The notes under the pieces were generated by a model. It did not search any database and was not told where the DNA came from. It saw only the letters and a list, made by a program, of their open reading frames with translations. Positions 1-46,309 of a stretch of DNA of 46,309 nucleotides are shown in pieces. Numbering within the stretch: the stretch's first letter is position 1; every line of letters starts with the position of its first letter. A program made the translations under genes and the position numbers. The DNA is from a virus. The stretch is from IMG/VR virus record IMGVR_UViG_3300045988_136632, one strand, 5' to 3'.

Positions 1-141
1 ATAGAGTCGGTAAGACCAAGAAGGAGATAACCAAAATGCACAAAAGAGATTTTCAATATAAATCTACCCAATTTTGGCAAAATCATAATACCCCAAAGTG
101 GATTTGCACTCATTTTCAAGCTTTAGAGTATAAAATGAATA
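1..141. repeat. terminal overlap copy 1 (identical to 46169-46309)
   Basis: Base-by-base reading shows that 1-141 equals 46169-46309. Confidence 0.95.
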
Positions 142-677
142 AACTTGAAGATTTTTATTTATTATGTAATTATCCGCTTGTTGATCCCAAATTAGAGTCC
201 ATTGGAATTACCAAAGATCATCTTTTCAGATACTTGTACGAAGATTTTTATATTATATTATTAAGTATTTCAGATATTATATCTAATATTTTGAATGATA
301 TATATAAATTAAACATAAAAAAAGAGTTGCAACATTTACCATATGTACTCAACGAATTAAGTCAAAAGCATATTATTGAAAAAAATCCTACATTGCATAC
401 TACATTAAAAGAATATAACTCTTTTTTAATTCATAATAAAGAAGAAAGAAATAACAACACTCATTATGGTAAATCCCGTAATAACGTACTTAGAAAAATA
501 GAGAATCCTAACGACACCGAAAAACTGCTTGACTATGTTCTTAAAAAAAGATATGACATAGATTTAAAAAGTATATTAAAACCAACTATTATAGAAAAAA
601 TGAATAGTCAAATCATAGAAACAGATAAATTTATAACTGAGATTTTTAATAATGTACAAACGAGATCATTCAGTTAA
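36..677 (+). CDS. hypothetical protein with a HEPN-like Rx4H motif (candidate abortive-infection RNase)
   Basis: The ATG lies 5 nt after the repressor stop, with AGGAG upstream. The product is 213 aa. R138-N-N-N-T-H143 (nt 447-464) fits the HEPN R-N-x-x-x-H signature. The gene is very AT-rich compared with the structural genes. Confidence 0.6.
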   Translation: MHKRDFQYKSTQFWQNHNTPKWICTHFQALEYKMNKLEDFYLLCNYPLVDPKLESIGITKDHLFRYLYEDFYIILLSISDIISNILNDIYKLNIKKELQHLPYVLNELSQKHIIEKNPTLHTTLKEYNSFLIHNKEERNNNTHYGKSRNNVLRKIENPNDTEKLLDYVLKKRYDIDLKSILKPTIIEKMNSQIIETDKFITEIFNNVQTRSFS

Positions 678-688
678 TATTATTGCTT

Positions 689-1318
689 ATGAAAAAAATT
701 ATTTTTATAACATTATCCGCTATCTTCGTCCTGTCAGGATGTAAATCAAAAGAAGACAAAGCATTAGAAGTCATCAAAAATCAAATGTTCCAAACATTAT
801 ACGACTTTGAAAGCTACCAACCTATAGAAACAAAAATAGATAGCGCATTTTTATCAATATACACCGATTCCGCCATTATTAGACATGGATATATCATTAA
901 TGAATTATTGGAGAAAGTAAACAAAGCTTTTGATGAAATCAACGAATATAAAAATTCAATGGAAATTTGGAGCGACTCCTATTCTTCTTATGGAATAAAG
1001 AAATTCTATGAAGCAAAAGAAAAATATGGGGAAAAAATAGAAGAAGCTAAATTATATTCCAAAATGATAAATGCGGAATCTGACACAATAAAATTACTTG
1101 CGCAAAATATTACCCCAGATTTTTATGGTTGGAAAGTAGCACATAAATTTAGATGCAAAACCAAAGGGGGAAATTCCGAAATTGGTAACTATATATATTA
1201 CTTCGATAAGAAAATAAAAAATATAATTTACCAAGAAGATATCGACAACGAAGACCTAATAAGAGCAAAAGAGTTTATAAAAGAATCCTTAGAAAAAGAT
1301 ACATTGTTAAGATGGTAG
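689..1318 (+). CDS. lipoprotein (candidate superinfection-exclusion or surface-modifying protein)
   Basis: The track ORF starts at TTG 683. The ATG at 689 gives MKKIIFITLSAIFVLSGC, a signal peptide plus lipobox (L-S-G-C). It begins 11 nt after the previous stop. Confidence 0.7.
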   Translation: MKKIIFITLSAIFVLSGCKSKEDKALEVIKNQMFQTLYDFESYQPIETKIDSAFLSIYTDSAIIRHGYIINELLEKVNKAFDEINEYKNSMEIWSDSYSSYGIKKFYEAKEKYGEKIEEAKLYSKMINAESDTIKLLAQNITPDFYGWKVAHKFRCKTKGGNSEIGNYIYYFDKKIKNIIYQEDIDNEDLIRAKEFIKESLEKDTLLRW

Positions 1319-1496
1319 ATATGTTATTTCTCATTTTTTAATTAGTATTAAAAACAAAGACGATCTAAAAGTATACAGAAATTAAGTAATTATAATGTAC
1401 CCACAACTTTATCGCATATATGCGCATAGGTTGTTACTTGCTTTCAAATTAGTATTCGAAGTTTAGGTATAACAATCTTCAAACAAGAAATTGAAA

Positions 1497-2057
1497 ATGA
1501 ATAAAAAAATACGAGATAACTATGATAAATACTGTTCGTTTATTAATGAGGAAAAAATCCTTGCAAAGGATCAAATGATACTTGATGAAGATAAAGCAAG
1601 CAGACCCGATTTCAAAGAGAAAAGCATGTTGGCATACAGTAATAATATCCCAGAAGAAATAACATTTACTGTACAACAAAAGAAAAAAGATGAGGCAGAT
1701 TTTAAATTTAATCTAAGATGTAAACCTTTTTGTGATCAACCTTTGTTCAGATATGATTCTACTGGCCCTTCACATAGAAATTCCAGTACTTCTACATCAA
1801 TAGATAAACAAATGGTTACCACTCCACACTTTCATAAATTTACTTCTGACGGGAAAGAAATTGCGTACAAAACAGCAGTGTTAGAAGAAGAGAACCAAGT
1901 TAAAGCATTAAGTGATATTTCTTTATGTGTTCTTCATTTTTTTCAAGAAGCACATATAAAAGGTGAAAAATTTGAGTTAATTTCGTCCCCTGGAGAACTT
2001 TCTTTTAAAGAAGATAGCGATGCTGATCCTTTAGAAAATGTAAAATTTATAATTTAA
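1497..2057 (+). CDS. hypothetical protein, His-rich motif R-Y-D...H-R-N...P-H-F-H (first gene of a two-gene cassette)
   Basis: The track start is TTG 1491, and the first ATG is at 1497. The motif FRYDSTGPSHRN(x14)TPHFHKF spans nt 1749-1835. I cannot assign a family from memory with confidence. Confidence 0.55.
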   Translation: MNKKIRDNYDKYCSFINEEKILAKDQMILDEDKASRPDFKEKSMLAYSNNIPEEITFTVQQKKKDEADFKFNLRCKPFCDQPLFRYDSTGPSHRNSSTSTSIDKQMVTTPHFHKFTSDGKEIAYKTAVLEEENQVKALSDISLCVLHFFQEAHIKGEKFELISSPGELSFKEDSDADPLENVKFII

Positions 2058-2059
2058 AA

Positions 2060-2866
2060 ATGATGGATGAAATTGTAGAACTTATCAAAAAGACATTTTA
2101 CTATCTATGGAAAGTAAAAAGATATGGAAAAACCATAGAGATAATTACACCGTCATTTACAACTAATGACTGCTTTGTATCTGTTTTCTTAACCAAAAGA
2201 GATAAATATTATATAGTCACTGATGGAGGTTGGATTAGTGAAAAATACTATAACAATTTTTTTGATAATGATGATGAATGTTATTCAAGATTATTCTCTT
2301 ATTATAAAGAGAAATATTCAATATGTGAGACTGAATCGAAAAACCAAGTGTACTACTACAAAAGTACAGAAAACATAGAGTTGATCCCCAATATAGTCCT
2401 TGAAATGTCTACTTTTATATCAACAGTAGTAAGTTCATCTTTTATTAAATTCCAAGATAATAAAGATAAGGACTTGCAAAAAAGATTTCGCTCACAAGTA
2501 AGCACATATCTTTCCTCTAATTTTAATAAAGATGAAGTGTCTTTTAACGGATCGATTGACGAACAATATAAAGATATTAAATTCAACGCTGTCATCAAGA
2601 GAGATAATAAATTTACTTTATTTAATTATGTAACTGGTACTACCGATTTTTATTTTAGAGGGAGTATCGGTCGCTCTAATATGAATTTTCAATTAATAAA
2701 CAGAACACCTATAAAAAACAAAATATACAAACGAGTGACTGTTATTAATAATCAAGCATCTGGATACAAGATAGATAAATTAAAACAATATCTTGAGTTA
2801 ATTTCAGCAGAAGCAGAATCAGAAATCATTAATTGGAGTAACAAAAAAGATTTATTAGAGATATAA
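2060..2866 (+). CDS. hypothetical protein, N-terminus resembles DUF1828-type proteins (second gene of the cassette)
   Basis: The ATG lies 2 nt after the upstream stop. The product is 268 aa. The N-terminal pattern GKTIEIITPSFTTNDCFVSVFLTKRDKYYIVTDGGW is recalled from DUF1828/DUF1829-like prophage proteins, but this is not verified. Confidence 0.55.
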   Translation: MMDEIVELIKKTFYYLWKVKRYGKTIEIITPSFTTNDCFVSVFLTKRDKYYIVTDGGWISEKYYNNFFDNDDECYSRLFSYYKEKYSICETESKNQVYYYKSTENIELIPNIVLEMSTFISTVVSSSFIKFQDNKDKDLQKRFRSQVSTYLSSNFNKDEVSFNGSIDEQYKDIKFNAVIKRDNKFTLFNYVTGTTDFYFRGSIGRSNMNFQLINRTPIKNKIYKRVTVINNQASGYKIDKLKQYLELISAEAESEIINWSNKKDLLEI

Positions 2867-2961
2867 ATATTGCGCAAATACAACAGATGAATACCATTAA
2901 TATTCATTGGTAAATCATTGAAAAATATTGAGTGTAATCAACTAATAAAAACCTATTTTTT

Positions 2962-2986
2962 TCCAAAACGAATCTTTGGAGTTTTT
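2962..2986 (+). terminator. weak hairpin plus T-run after the two-gene cassette
   Basis: TCCAAA (2962-2967), a 7-nt loop, TTTGGA (2975-2980), then GTTTTT. The stem is AT-rich and overlaps a TCCAAAAC repeat, so it may instead be an integrase arm site. Confidence 0.3.
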
Positions 2987-3040
2987 AAAATCCGTTGTAA
3001 CATACTGAATAGCTGTCAGTTTACATATAAATAAGGTTCA

Positions 3041-3084
3041 TACTGGCAGTGTCGAGGTGATCGGTTCGAGTCCGATACTCTCCA
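3041..3084 (+). other. tRNA 3'-end fragment, candidate attP core
   Basis: T-arm ATCGG-TTCGAGT-CCGAT (3060-3076), then acceptor 3' strand ACTCTCC (3077-3083). The upstream part looks like a long variable arm (tRNA-Ser-like). No matching 5' acceptor or D-arm is present, so the tRNA is partial. It lies 135 nt upstream of the integrase. Confidence 0.65.
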
Positions 3085-3218
3085 CAGATTAAAAATCGCT
3101 CCTACAGTATGTTATAACGTACTTTCTAAATTCTTCCAAATTTCGTTTTGGATAAAAAAAAGACAAATTCTGCCACTTTTGGCATTAATAACTTGTCGAA
3201 AACTTATCCAAAACAATT

Positions 3219-4397
3219 ATGACAACTCTCAAAATTGCCGTTGTTCCAGCTAAGATGCTGAAAAGCGGAAAACACAAAATCAGAATCGCAATTGGACACA
3301 AACAAGAAACAAGATACCTTGTTACCCGATTCACTATTGACAATTTATCTTATTTCAAAGACGGGCAAGTTGTAGGAACAGCAAATGCTTCGAGTATAAA
3401 TATGAAATTAAGGAATATCCTTAATTCATATCAAGAAGCACTCGACCGAATAAATACTCAATCATATACTTGTAAACAACTCATCGAATACTTGTCAACC
3501 GTTAAACAAGGTACTACAAGTTTTAATACTGCATCCAACGAATTCATAATCAATATGGAAAATGAAGGCAGAAAAAGCACAGCCGCACTATATCGTAGAA
3601 CCTGTAATTATTTTAATGAGTTTATAAAGTATGATATTATGTTAGATGGTATTACTCCACGTACCATAAAAGATTTCGACATCTACATGAATAAGGAAAG
3701 AAATCTAAATCCTGTCACAAGAGGGACACATATGGCTCATTTAAAGGCAATAATCAATCAAGCAATACGAGATAAAAAAGCGGCTTATGAAACACATCCT
3801 TTTGAATATTACGAAAAGCCGGCAGGAAGTGTACGAGAGCTTGATATCACCGTTGAAGAAGTAAAAATGATTAGAGATTCAACCCCAAAAGAAAAATCTC
3901 TAAGAATGGCTCGTGATCTCTTTATGCTATCCTATTATCTTGGAGGTATTAATCTCATAGACCTCATGCAATTTAATTTTAAAAACAAGGATACAATTGA
4001 ATACATACGAGAAAAATCTAAGAACACTAAAAAAGGTGATAAAAAAGTAAGTCTTACTATACCGGACGAAGCAAAACCGATTATCAAAGAATGGATCAGT
4101 AAAAGTGGGAAACTTAACTTTGGGTATAAATACACATATGATAATTTCAGAAAGTATGTCACAAAAGAAATAGGGCGCCTTGCCGAAAAAATAGGTATCG
4201 AATCACACGTAGTATACTATTCAGCACGAAAGAGCTTTGTACAACACGGTTTCGAGCTTGGAATAAATCTTGAAACATTAGAATATTGTATCGGTCAAAG
4301 CATGAAAATGAATCGTCCTATTTTTAATTATGTAAAGATAATGCGAAAACACGCTGATCAAGCTATTAGAAAAATACTTGATAATCTGAAAAAATAA
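3219..4397 (+). CDS. int: tyrosine-type site-specific integrase
   Basis: 392 aa, adjacent to the tRNA-fragment attP. The N-terminal arm-binding-like region, the C-terminal YYSARKSFVQHG and the NY near the end are typical of Bacteroidota phage and CTn integrases. Confidence 0.8.
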   Translation: MTTLKIAVVPAKMLKSGKHKIRIAIGHKQETRYLVTRFTIDNLSYFKDGQVVGTANASSINMKLRNILNSYQEALDRINTQSYTCKQLIEYLSTVKQGTTSFNTASNEFIINMENEGRKSTAALYRRTCNYFNEFIKYDIMLDGITPRTIKDFDIYMNKERNLNPVTRGTHMAHLKAIINQAIRDKKAAYETHPFEYYEKPAGSVRELDITVEEVKMIRDSTPKEKSLRMARDLFMLSYYLGGINLIDLMQFNFKNKDTIEYIREKSKNTKKGDKKVSLTIPDEAKPIIKEWISKSGKLNFGYKYTYDNFRKYVTKEIGRLAEKIGIESHVVYYSARKSFVQHGFELGINLETLEYCIGQSMKMNRPIFNYVKIMRKHADQAIRKILDNLKK

Positions 4398-43384: not shown

Positions 43385-43777
43385 TTAAGAAAGAAGGAAG
43401 TTTGATAAACTCAAATCAACATTCCGCCTACCCGTAATTCTAACTGAAATGGTATTACGGGCACGAGAAGAAAACCGAATTCTACGCATATCAAAGTAGC
43501 TACAAGTAATCTGTATAGTAAAAAAAAGGATTGAAAAAAATATTTCCAATCCGTGCTTCCTTATCTCTTTCAGATCAAAGTTCTTCTTCGCCCTGTCACA
43601 TAGCAAAAATAAGGTTAGTTCAACATTGTTATTAATACCTAACTTTTTATGAATATCCCTTATCTGAGCTTTTATCGTCCACACAGATTTTTGTAAGACA
43701 TCTGCGATTTCAACAGGAGTATGCCCCTTTGCCACTTCATTTGCTACTTGATATTCACATTGAGTCAAAGGTTCCAT
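43385..43777 (-). CDS. LuxR/GerE-type HTH regulator with a hydrophobic C-terminal segment
   Basis: LTQCEYQVANEVAKGHTPVEIADVLQKSVWTIKAQIRDIHKKLG is a GerE-type HTH. The C-terminus carries IFFSILFFTIQI. Confidence 0.65.
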   Translation of the reverse strand: MEPLTQCEYQVANEVAKGHTPVEIADVLQKSVWTIKAQIRDIHKKLGINNNVELTLFLLCDRAKKNFDLKEIRKHGLEIFFSILFFTIQITCSYFDMRRIRFSSRARNTISVRITGRRNVDLSLSNFLLS

Positions 43778-44034
43778 TAGGACAACCGTTTAACAAAGTA
43801 TATTCGTTTCACCTCATCCGCCCCTATCACATCCCATTGCTTTTCACCCCATGAATCACGTTCCTTTGAGGATTTCACAGAGTATAAAGATGATTGCTTC
43901 ACATTAGTAAATCCAAATATCTGCCCAATTTCCATCTCTTCAAATCCCGGTCTTAAGTCTGAGGTATACTTTGCGACTTCCATACCTCTGGTACGAAGTA
44001 CATTTTCTGTAAGTACAGGTAATTTATTTGCCAT
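43777..44034 (-). CDS. hypothetical protein
   Basis: 85 aa, overlapping the next gene by 1 nt. Confidence 0.55.
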   Translation of the reverse strand: MANKLPVLTENVLRTRGMEVAKYTSDLRPGFEEMEIGQIFGFTNVKQSSLYSVKSSKERDSWGEKQWDVIGADEVKRIYFVKRLS

Positions 44035-44438
44035 AATATTTATTTTAGTTTATATATAATGTGCCCTGCCCGATTCTCACTACCGGATGCCAGTTACAAG
44101 CTGTCAACAGGACTTATAAAGCAAATACCACGATTTGCCGACCTTAGTCTAACTGTTTATTTTTACAACGATGCCTGTTTGACCCTTACAGCAGCATACA
44201 TCGTTGTCAAGTTATGACTACTTTACATCGTCAGATTTCGTCAGAGGATAACTTGAAAACCTCAATTTTCCATTATGTCAAAGATCGAATTAACATAGTG
44301 CCTGTAGAAGATATTCTCTACGCCCCTACAGGCTAAATGACTTTTAAAATTTCCCCGGCTGGTATCCCTTGCTATCAGCGCTGAACATCGCAGGAGCCTT
44401 ATGCCGGATTACAGGACTACCTTTTTGGAAATCTTAAT
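44035..44438 (-). ncRNA. candidate structured RNA or long regulatory leader (class unknown)
   Basis: A 404-nt stretch with no ORF of 60 aa or more on either strand. GC is about 46% in the first 100 nt by hand count. Several 6-8 bp helices are present, including CAACGATG/CATCGTTG, CCTGTAG/CTACAGG and GCAAAT/ATTTGC. Confidence 0.3.
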
Positions 44439-45398: not shown

Positions 45399-45406
45399 CA
45401 AAGATA
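45399..45406 (-). promoter_or_regulatory. candidate early promoter -7 box TATCTTTG (reverse strand)
   Basis: Plus-strand CAAAGATA is the reverse complement of TAnnTTTG. It overlaps operator palindrome O1 by 3 nt. Confidence 0.4.
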
Positions 45407-45420
45407 CTAACAGTTAGTAT
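45404..45420. promoter_or_regulatory. operator palindrome O1, ATACTAAC-A-GTTAGTAT
   Basis: Perfect 8+1+8 inverted repeat in the divergent intergenic region. Confidence 0.6.
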
Positions 45421-45465: not shown

Positions 45466-45482
45466 TAACTAACTGTTAGTAT
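45466..45482. promoter_or_regulatory. operator palindrome O2, (TA)ACTAAC-T-GTTAGT(AT)
   Basis: It has the same ACTAAC-N-GTTAGT core as O1 and ends 8 nt upstream of the repressor ATG. Confidence 0.55.
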
Positions 45483-45490
45483 TTTCATAT

Positions 45491-46198
45491 ATGGAAGCTT
45501 GGGAAAGAATAGAATTTATTATTGAAAGAGAAGGGATGAATAAGAATTCATTCAGTAATGCTATTGGCATTTCTAATAATGTGACTATAACAAGAATCAT
45601 TAATGAACATCGTACTCCTTCACGAGCTACATGTGAAAAGATAGTTAGTGCATTTCCTTCTTATAATCTTCAATGGGTACTTACTGGAGAAGGTGAAATG
45701 CTCAATAATTCGAATCCTGTACCAAAGTACAATGAAGCCGTACCCATTCAACAAGATGTAGTATATATTCCTCTTGTCAACCAATTCGCATATGCCGGAT
45801 ATCTTGATGGATATTCAGATTGCACCTATTTAGAACAGCTTCCTAAAGTTCCTTTTATTGTAGATCATGAAGGACATGGAAATTATATCGCTTTCGAAGT
45901 AAAGGGGGACAGCATGAACAACGGAACCGAAGAAAGCTATTTAGAAGGTGATAGACTGTACTGTCGTGAAATACAACCTCACCTTTGGGCTACATCTAAA
46001 TTACATCTCCGGAAATGGGATTTTGTGATAGTACATGAAGATGGAATTGTAGTAAAACGAATTATAGATCACGATGTAGAGAACCACACTATTACAATAC
46101 ATTCTTTGAATGATATGTATCCAGATCGAGTTATTGATTTGTGCGATGTTAAACAGATATTTAATGTCATAGAGTCGGTAAGACCAAGAAGGAGATAA
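45491..46198 (+). CDS. CI/LexA-like repressor (N-terminal HTH plus C-terminal S24 autopeptidase)
   Basis: The N-terminal Cro/C1-type HTH is NSFSNAIGISNNVTITRIINEHRTP. The C-terminus has VKGDSMNNG (catalytic Ser) and IVVKRI (Lys). Confidence 0.85.
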   Translation: MEAWERIEFIIEREGMNKNSFSNAIGISNNVTITRIINEHRTPSRATCEKIVSAFPSYNLQWVLTGEGEMLNNSNPVPKYNEAVPIQQDVVYIPLVNQFAYAGYLDGYSDCTYLEQLPKVPFIVDHEGHGNYIAFEVKGDSMNNGTEESYLEGDRLYCREIQPHLWATSKLHLRKWDFVIVHEDGIVVKRIIDHDVENHTITIHSLNDMYPDRVIDLCDVKQIFNVIESVRPRRR

Positions 46199-46309
46199 CC
46201 AAAATGCACAAAAGAGATTTTCAATATAAATCTACCCAATTTTGGCAAAATCATAATACCCCAAAGTGGATTTGCACTCATTTTCAAGCTTTAGAGTATA
46301 AAATGAATA
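46169..46309. repeat. terminal overlap copy 2 (identical to 1-141)
   Basis: Same as copy 1. It contains the repressor stop codon and the start of the 36-677 ORF. Confidence 0.95.

Follow-up and report, generated by a model that had tools for sequence, protein, structure and literature searches.

Stand-alone HEPN defences encoded by prophages, and defence cargo placed next to prophage repressors, are both established. Tha of Staphylococcus aureus prophages works as a single HEPN protein, carries an RNxxxH site and is activated by tail proteins of the incoming phage (PMC11087260), and Butters gp57r is a prophage-encoded single-protein HEPN defence as well (bioRxiv 10.1101/2023.01.03.522681). 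The single-gene HEPN Abi proteins of lactococci offer a further working model (PMC3710099). The Cthe_2314 family of HEPN proteins was listed in the 2013 survey of Anantharaman et al. with its motif present and its gene associations given as 'None detected' (PMC3710099), and our literature search found no paper mentioning the corresponding Pfam entry, PF18730. Here we describe a stretch of viral DNA of 46,309 nucleotides (nt), IMG/VR record IMGVR_UViG_3300045988_136632 (hereafter the window, meaning the whole stretch), in which a gene for a predicted Cthe_2314-family HEPN protein of 213 amino acids (aa), ORF213, lies directly behind a phage repressor gene and in front of a lipoprotein gene. We propose, as a model that has an even chance of being right, that ORF213 is a stand-alone HEPN anti-phage gene among independent cassettes.

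A putative HEPN gene directly behind the repressor gene

Positions 1-141 of the window are identical to positions 46169-46309, forming an exact 141-nt terminal direct repeat, which marks the window as a phage genome of about 46.2 kb closed into a circle. Owing to this end overlap, the open reading frame (ORF) cut at the window start can be recognized as the 3' end of the 235-aa repressor ORF, whose last 30 nt are repeated at positions 1-30, and the HEPN gene cluster is continuous with the repressor gene. The repressor (45491..46198, plus strand) is CI-like, with an N-terminal helix-turn-helix (HTH) domain and a C-terminal S24 (LexA-like) autopeptidase domain. It matches Pfam PF00717 Peptidase_S24 (E 1.8e-7) plus HTH_3/HTH_19, and PHROG 4, 'transcriptional repressor' (E 2.8e-20). 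Its stop codon TAA at 28-30 (equal to 46196-46198) is separated by 5 nt from the ATG of ORF213 at 36. ORF213 (36..677, plus strand) terminates at a stop codon at 675-677, leaving a gap of 11 nt to the ATG of the lipoprotein gene at 689. An earlier note on this DNA, made from its letters alone, had described these two spacings, the low GC content of both genes and a location resembling that of rexAB in phage lambda. All of these were borne out, as the HEPN gene directly follows a CI-type S24 repressor gene, and the GC contents are 24.6% for ORF213 and 28.9% for the lipoprotein gene, compared to 35.5% for the repressor gene and 37% for the bulk of the phage (5400-45300).

ORF213 matches PF18730 (HEPN_Cthe2314) with an E-value of 3.7e-7 and a score of 30.8 bits, above the gathering threshold of 27.1. 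The match spans residues 52-167 (profile positions 34-148 of 174) and includes the sequence R138-N-N-N-T-H143 (447..464, plus strand), which corresponds to the R-x4-H active-site motif of HEPN proteins and lies within a longer block, E136-E-R-N-x-x-x-H-x-G-K-S147. Both the motif and the family guess of the earlier note thus found support in Pfam. Two relatives match the same profile. The distant protein P0126 does so over the same stretch with E 1.1e-10 and 42.2 bits, and the protein of Bacteroides nordii (P0002) with E 7.6e-6 and 26.5 bits, slightly under the cut-off; the UniRef name of the latter is Cthe_2314 family HEPN protein. The residues E136, E137, R138, N139, H143, G145, K146 and S147 are invariant among the window protein, the B. 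nordii protein (74% identity) and P0126 (27% identity). The block EERNxxxHxGKS is the strongest conservation in this three-way alignment, and the motif is also intact in a further allele at locus L106. The pair R138...H143 is no chance R-x4-H, since it lies inside an above-gathering Pfam match and does not vary even among relatives as distant as 27% identity. The motif region of P0126 also shows a weak match to the PADLOC CARF_HEPN model (E 0.0085), the sole PADLOC match among the HEPN alleles. No Abi_2 or other Abi Pfam match was found for ORF213. The secondary structure predicted for it, helical throughout, is in keeping with a HEPN protein. Judged from profile and motif, ORF213 is very likely a HEPN protein, and it is predicted to be a metal-independent RNase.

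The ratio of nonsynonymous to synonymous substitution rates (dN/dS) of ORF213 is 0.25 against the B. nordii allele, indicating a real gene under purifying selection, and 0.79 against the L106 allele, the latter value coming from about 8 synonymous changes. The corresponding values are 0.012-0.016 for the repressor C-terminal domain and 0.07 for the lipoprotein gene. ORF213 (0.25-0.79) thus appears to evolve faster than both, a pattern typical of conflict genes.

Four alleles and the conserved repressor junction

The HEPN gene is rare. An exhaustive HMMER search of 1.8 billion representatives yielded three matches, namely the HEPN protein itself, a fragment and P0126, and a word-indexed search covered 5.8 billion clusters. 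Across all searches only the B. nordii allele and L106 were added to the HMMER matches; a profile search, genome contigs and tblastn of phage GenBank gave no new members. In total, one HEPN locus was found in IMG/VR and three in metagenomes. Two shorter proteins were considered as decayed copies and rejected. P0003 (128 aa) had been taken as a pseudogene or a hint of toxicity, but its breaks proved in the alignment to be N-runs in scaffolds, and P0004 (129 aa), taken as a truncated pseudogene, corresponds to the C-terminal portion of the L106 allele, which is intact.

The four alleles are the window type, L106 (about 89-90% aa identity), B. nordii (74%) and P0126 (27%). All four are found in related Bacteroides prophages with common GerE, AAA_24 and SNF2 early genes, and each lies in the repressor-proximal cargo region, on the strand of the repressor gene. 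Three alleles have HEPN as the first gene behind the S24 repressor gene, separated from it by 5, 5 and 12 nt. L106 differs in that a gene for an unrelated lipoprotein of 206 aa has been inserted between repressor and HEPN genes. However, the HEPN gene there is preceded, with the same short spacer, by a degenerate second copy of the repressor gene's final ~145 nt (L106 3855-4000, matching window 46053-46198), indicating that the ancestral junction was repressor-HEPN. This copy looks like the footprint of a cassette insertion by recombination at the repressor 3' end, which is conserved and seems to serve as the anchor for recombination in cassette exchange. L106 also carries a deletion from the HEPN 3' end through the ORF268 3' end, with HEPN and its motif intact. 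The B. nordii allele, found in a sequenced isolate (CP083676), is followed by a gene for an SH3/DUF3761 secreted protein and then by one for a membrane protein.

This constancy of the junction raises the question of whether the HEPN protein is a toxin coupled to the repressor. In such an addiction or induction module, binding to the repressor or tight co-regulation would hold it in check, and the RNase would act once the S24 repressor had undergone RecA-stimulated self-cleavage or the prophage had been lost, shutting off host RNA during induction or killing cured cells. The first place behind an S24 repressor at 5-12 nt in three alleles, together with the repressor relic in the fourth, makes the repressor-HEPN junction the one constant of the locus. 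In addition, HEPN toxins usually need a neutralizer (PMC3710099), and no other candidate antitoxin such as MNT is nearby: no nucleotidyltransferase (MNT antitoxin) domain was detected among the window genes scanned or in the related loci. We nevertheless consider a coupled toxin rather unlikely. Single-protein HEPN defences of the Tha and AbiD/F type are non-toxic without an antitoxin (PMC11087260), and L106 has another gene between repressor and HEPN genes. The repressor C-terminal domain is 90-97% identical in prophages that have no HEPN gene, which shows only that the repressor is independent of HEPN.

The repressor itself is a mosaic. Across the prophages compared (window 45491-46198; L001 9300-9995; L007 5045-5740; L105 1815-2522), its C-terminal domain shows the 90-97% identity given above, whereas the N-terminal HTH domain is only 33-36% identical. 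An operator-like region with two copies of the palindrome ACTAAC-N-GTTAGT (45406..45418 and 45468..45480) separates the repressor gene from the divergent early genes. The palindrome was found nowhere else in the window, and its two copies are plausible candidate operators. The swap boundary of the immunity region starts at the first palindrome, at 45406. Taken together, the mosaic repressor and this boundary indicate that immunity specificity is exchanged by recombination within the repressor gene.

HEPN and lipoprotein genes as probable separate cassettes

The gene behind ORF213 (689..1318, plus strand) encodes a lipoprotein of 209 aa, which belongs to a large Bacteroidales phage family that has no name. 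The earlier note had regarded the two genes as one defence system, with the lipoprotein, for example, acting as an envelope sensor that signals to or restrains the cytoplasmic RNase. Their adjacency with a gap of 11 nt would suit such a two-gene system, and every HEPN allele adjoins a gene for an exported protein, namely the lipoprotein, the 206-aa lipoprotein or the SH3 secreted protein. However, the distribution of the two genes speaks against it. With a HMM (hidden Markov model) of the HEPN family, HEPN was found in none of 80 IMG/VR phage loci that encode a member of the lipoprotein family. In those loci the lipoprotein gene often lies directly behind a repressor gene, amid other cargo. 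Its neighbours there include defence-like cargo, namely a protein with an HSDR_N domain (Pfam) and proteins that by eye are Fic-, restriction-endonuclease- and GIY-YIG-like, as well as other secreted proteins and homologues of the ORF188-ORF268 pair described below. Exported proteins are common throughout these cargo regions, which also speaks against a two-gene system.

The strongest evidence against a pair is a natural exchange at the locus, seen in a sister phage (L007/L009). The window and this phage share 99.6% identity as far as 45406, beyond which the phage has a different operator region and repressor N-terminal domain. In this phage exactly positions 29-688, comprising the HEPN gene, are replaced by an unrelated gene for a 78-aa membrane protein, and the lipoprotein gene is retained with 97% identity. 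The boundaries of the HEPN cassette are the repressor stop and the lipoprotein start. The 78-aa ORF was considered as an N-terminal remnant of HEPN, and this was rejected because it is an unrelated membrane protein with no match to the HEPN HMM. The small membrane protein in the HEPN slot (65-78 aa, MIEILTIILLIFGVLQIILFF...) is encoded at 5768-6004 in L007, where its stop codon overlaps the lipoprotein start, and a homologue is found downstream of the lipoprotein gene in L082-L086. It may be another exclusion-type cargo gene.

HEPN and lipoprotein genes occur together in two of the four HEPN alleles (window and P0126) and apart in B. nordii and L106, where HEPN is intact without the lipoprotein. 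In the P0126 phage, HEPN is followed by a gene for a lipoprotein of 170 aa, which BLASTP (E 2e-9) and a leave-one-out HMM (E 1e-17) identify as a true but distant member of the lipoprotein family. The order repressor-HEPN-lipoprotein is therefore common to the window and P0126 phages, with identities of 30%, 27% and 25%, respectively. That the trio keeps its order at 25-30% identity could mean a functional tie rather than mere shared ancestry, and this counts against our model. However, since phages of this group very often carry the lipoprotein gene behind a repressor, shared operon ancestry is enough to account for the recurrence. The earlier note had asked whether the pair recurs in other prophages; it does so once, in the deeply diverged P0126 phage, and fails to do so in the 80 lipoprotein loci and in the other two alleles. 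The two products would also work in different compartments, as the lipoprotein is exported by the Sec/Lol route and the RNase is cytoplasmic. We therefore regard a two-gene defence as highly improbable. Based on the gene arrangements compared, the HEPN and lipoprotein genes are likely to be independent cassettes.

A related pair of ideas ties the HEPN protein to the lysogeny switch more tightly. The HEPN protein might be neutralized or silenced as long as the S24 repressor remains intact and freed on repressor self-cleavage, or repressor, HEPN and lipoprotein might form one layered immunity unit. We give these ideas little chance. If either held, it would be a new mode of control for the orphan Cthe_2314 HEPN family, and prophage repressors would also be antitoxins. 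A repressor-wired HEPN would tie the SOS decision to an RNA-level shut-off or a suicide step.

The lipoprotein and its predicted location

The lipoprotein carries a signal sequence, MKKIIFITLSAIFV-LSGC, with the lipobox LSGC encoded at 731-742, which fits the pattern [LVI][ASTVI][GAS]C and agrees with the lipobox described in the earlier note. The lipobox cysteine is nearly invariant across 27 aligned family members. There is an in-frame TTG at 683, upstream of the ATG, and homologues begin with MKK. A total of 229 homologues were found at E <= 0.001, none with a Pfam domain, and the window protein itself has only a weak lipid-attachment-site match (LPAM_1), consistent with the earlier description of a lipoprotein with no recognizable domain. 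Besides the lipobox, the conserved blocks of the family are TLYDFxSY and FRCKTKGG. A search of the family profile against the PDB found no relatives. Two weak matches were discarded. The match to PHROG 1119 (Cor; E 0.054) covers only residues 1-22, which are the signal peptide, and does not indicate homology. The PDB match of the lipoprotein profile to AcrIIA11 (E 0.014) was judged to be chance, because it involves a coiled-coil-like region and the protein is exported.

In Bacteroidetes, the signal for surface export lies just after Cys+1 and consists of C-X-K-(D/E)2-X, or S-D-D-D-D, with a net negative charge (PMC5080379), and shifting this motif impairs surface export (Lauber et al., PMC5080379). 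The mature N-terminus is C-K-S-K-E-D-K in the window and C-K-S-K-E-E-K in the family consensus. The acidic pair is located at +5/+6, where the signal needs it one or two places nearer to the cysteine, and the net charge is positive. Thus the lipoprotein does not carry the export signal, and by this comparison a periplasm-facing location is more likely than surface display.

Proposed role of the HEPN gene

Based on the four alleles and the exchanges described above, we propose a model for the locus. The slot behind the repressor gene would be a cargo (moron) region of exchangeable, independent cassettes, all on the repressor strand. In the lysogen, the HEPN gene would be transcribed together with the repressor gene from the repressor maintenance promoter, which we infer from the gaps of 5 and 11 nt, the common strand and the lack of room for signals; the 5-nt repressor-HEPN gap has no space for a promoter, and a search for a terminator came up empty. 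The HEPN protein would act alone, as an RNase of abortive infection or superinfection immunity, and would be constitutively produced but inactive. By analogy to characterized HEPN proteins, the latent protein is most likely a dimer with a composite active site, acting as a metal-independent RNase. Activation by some component of an infecting phage would lead to RNA cleavage and thereby to arrest of translation and of phage growth. Tha acts in this manner, and the lactococcal HEPN Abi proteins probably do as well. The lipoprotein would belong to a separate and far commoner lysogenic-conversion gene; it probably alters the envelope and possibly blocks a receptor from the periplasmic side, although this is conjecture. 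ORF188 and ORF268 would form a third cassette. Reasoning from characterized HEPN defences, an anti-phage RNase role of the HEPN protein stands slightly below an even chance.

A role in the phage's own regulation, such as the processing of lysogenic or lytic transcripts, or a non-catalytic, regulatory RNA-binding function would also place a HEPN protein in this operon with no part in defence. Some HEPN families are indeed regulators, for example MtlR (PMC3710099), and a position inside the immunity operon is compatible with such a function. However, the catalytic R and H and the flanking EE..GKS are invariant, and HEPN is dispensable, as it is absent from the sister phage. An AT-rich, foreign and fast-evolving gene also resembles an accessory conflict gene rather than a core regulator. 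A regulatory role is therefore unlikely.

Several observations weigh against our model as a whole. Structure prediction by AlphaFold gave all-helical models of low confidence, with pLDDT values of 43.3 (single sequence) and 49.3 (3-sequence alignment). Because of this low confidence, HEPN membership rests on the profile match and the motif and not on the fold. Foldseek comparison of these models with the PDB returned nothing below E = 1, with a HepT toxin only at rank 14 (E 4.9), and PDB sequence searches with the protein, its profile and P0126 were empty. The PF18730 score is only about 4 bits over the threshold, and the B. nordii allele is just under it. Neither the HEPN protein nor the lipoprotein matched any model of PADLOC-DB v2, which includes RexAB, Abi and HEPN-TM models, at E <= 1, so the PADLOC check suggested in the earlier note was negative for both proteins. 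With only four alleles, the context statistics are thin. A scan for sigma-70 promoters and terminators found no more sites than in shuffled sequence, a scan that is unsuited to Bacteroides; the Bacteroides -7 motif TAnnTTTG was absent from the plus strand of the intergenic regions. Finally, the model gives no account of how a constitutively made RNase stays harmless.

The structural results, together with the marginal Pfam score and the AT-rich, low-complexity sequence, would also fit a false-positive HEPN call on an unrelated helical cargo protein. We consider this very unlikely, as three diverged sequences match PF18730 over the same region, conservation peaks exactly at the R-N-x3-H block, and the B. 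nordii protein is named in UniRef as a member of the family.

Neighbouring cargo and layout of the phage genome

Downstream of the lipoprotein gene, two further genes lie on the plus strand. ORF188 (1497..2057) encodes 186 aa, or 188 aa from a TTG at 1491, and is DUF6978/PDC-M24A-like: its Pfam DUF6978 match has E 2.2e-6 and 28.4 bits against a cut-off of 29.6, and it matches the PADLOC candidate PDC-M24A with E 4.1e-6. ORF268 (2060..2866, 268 aa) is its constant partner. No PDC-M24 component matched ORF268, and searches of Pfam, PADLOC, PHROG and NCBIfam returned nothing for it. Homologues of the two genes are always adjacent (L021, L033-L034 and L036-L051). The segment 1429-2920, containing both genes, is missing from L007/L009, where the match to the window runs to 1428 and resumes at 2921. 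Their GC contents are 30.5% and 27.3%, respectively. ORF188-ORF268 thus appears to be a separate AT-rich two-gene cassette and a second candidate defence pair. An imperfect 32-nt palindrome (ACAACTTTATCGCATAT/ATATGCGCATAGGTTGT; inverted repeat I4, 1403..1434) between the lipoprotein gene and ORF188 sits on the left boundary of this cassette (1428/1429), where it may serve as a terminator hairpin, as a regulator site or in recombination.

The window is the genome of a temperate Bacteroides phage. Its relatives are integrated in Bacteroides genomes and are also found in human-gut metagenomes. A long block on the minus strand holds the structural and early genes. A tyrosine integrase is encoded at 3219..4397 (plus strand; Pfam Phage_int_SAM_5, E 5.8e-16, and Phage_integrase). 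The window and the integrated copy L021 are collinear up to 3086, beyond which L021 continues as host DNA. This places the attP core at about 3042..3086 and the cargo genes at the attR end in the lysogen, where the gene order is repressor, ORF213 (HEPN), lipoprotein, ORF188, ORF268 and attR. Nested long inverted repeats (2956-3007 and 3105-3158) surround the attP core, which resembles a short unannotated gut phage record (MT838931.1, 92.5% identity). At the attR end of several related prophages a gene for a Cys-rich protein of 83-84 aa (…CSLTPTCKGWGCRF…) is present (L001 12147-12334; L016 9206-9457; L105 4507-4761), which is not in the window. In the early region, the Rfam model RF02926 (DUF2693-FD RNA) matches positions 44063-44113 on the minus strand with 55.8 bits against a gathering score of 44.5, just upstream of an 85-aa gene (43777-44034).

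Comparison with known systems

RexAB of phage lambda consists of a sensor and a membrane ion channel, and is not an RNase. The locus resembles rexA-rexB in that accessory genes lie directly downstream of a CI-type repressor gene on the same strand, with expression in the lysogen and phage exclusion expected. It differs in having no sequence similarity to rexA-rexB, and in that its neighbouring genes appear to be independent cassettes and not a pair.

Like Tha, the window HEPN is a prophage-encoded single protein with an R-N-x3-H motif in its C-terminal half. Tha is made in the lysogen, is non-toxic alone and becomes a non-specific RNase once triggered by a phage (PMC11087260); by analogy, we only propose these properties for the window HEPN. 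Tha has 301 aa, an unrelated N-terminal region and a Gram-positive host, and its gene is paired with ith/xis, whereas the window HEPN gene is paired with the repressor gene; a sequence relationship between the two proteins was neither looked for nor noticed. The lactococcal AbiD, AbiF, AbiU2 and AbiV and the phage-encoded AbiF of Clostridioides difficile (PMC12373285) are likewise small stand-alone HEPN proteins; they act in abortive infection and some are borne by prophages. They belong to other HEPN families than the window protein. In addition, an RNA encoded next to it controls the AbiF of C. difficile (PMC12373285), whereas the window HEPN gene is flanked by gaps of 5 and 11 nt and has no Rfam RNA near it. 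If the window protein were merely one more prophage HEPN Abi, a known class would gain a member without a new principle.

Llp of phage T5 blocks an outer-membrane receptor from the periplasmic side. The window lipoprotein resembles Llp and Cor (phi80/N15) as a small phage lipoprotein that may be expressed in the lysogen, and a receptor-blocking role for it would be analogous. It shows no homology to them and is about three times larger, and its function is one that we infer.

The locus shows that prophage cargo is shuffled as exact gene-sized cassettes, apparently with the repressor 3' end as anchor, and it is tractable, as near-isogenic phages with and without HEPN exist in nature and a B. 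nordii prophage with the 74% allele is in culture. To our knowledge, very few phage-defence genes have been tested in human-gut Bacteroides. The locus is also related to the PF18730/Cthe_2314 family, since the window protein and its relatives match the profile and keep the R-x4-H. The Bacteroides prophage branch differs from the rest of this family in being very diverged, with marginal scores, and in its consistent position behind an S24 repressor. The family has had no function or genomic association since 2013, and the placement of one branch in a lysogeny operon suggests a testable role. It is the first consistent genomic context for this orphan HEPN family, in an under-studied host group.

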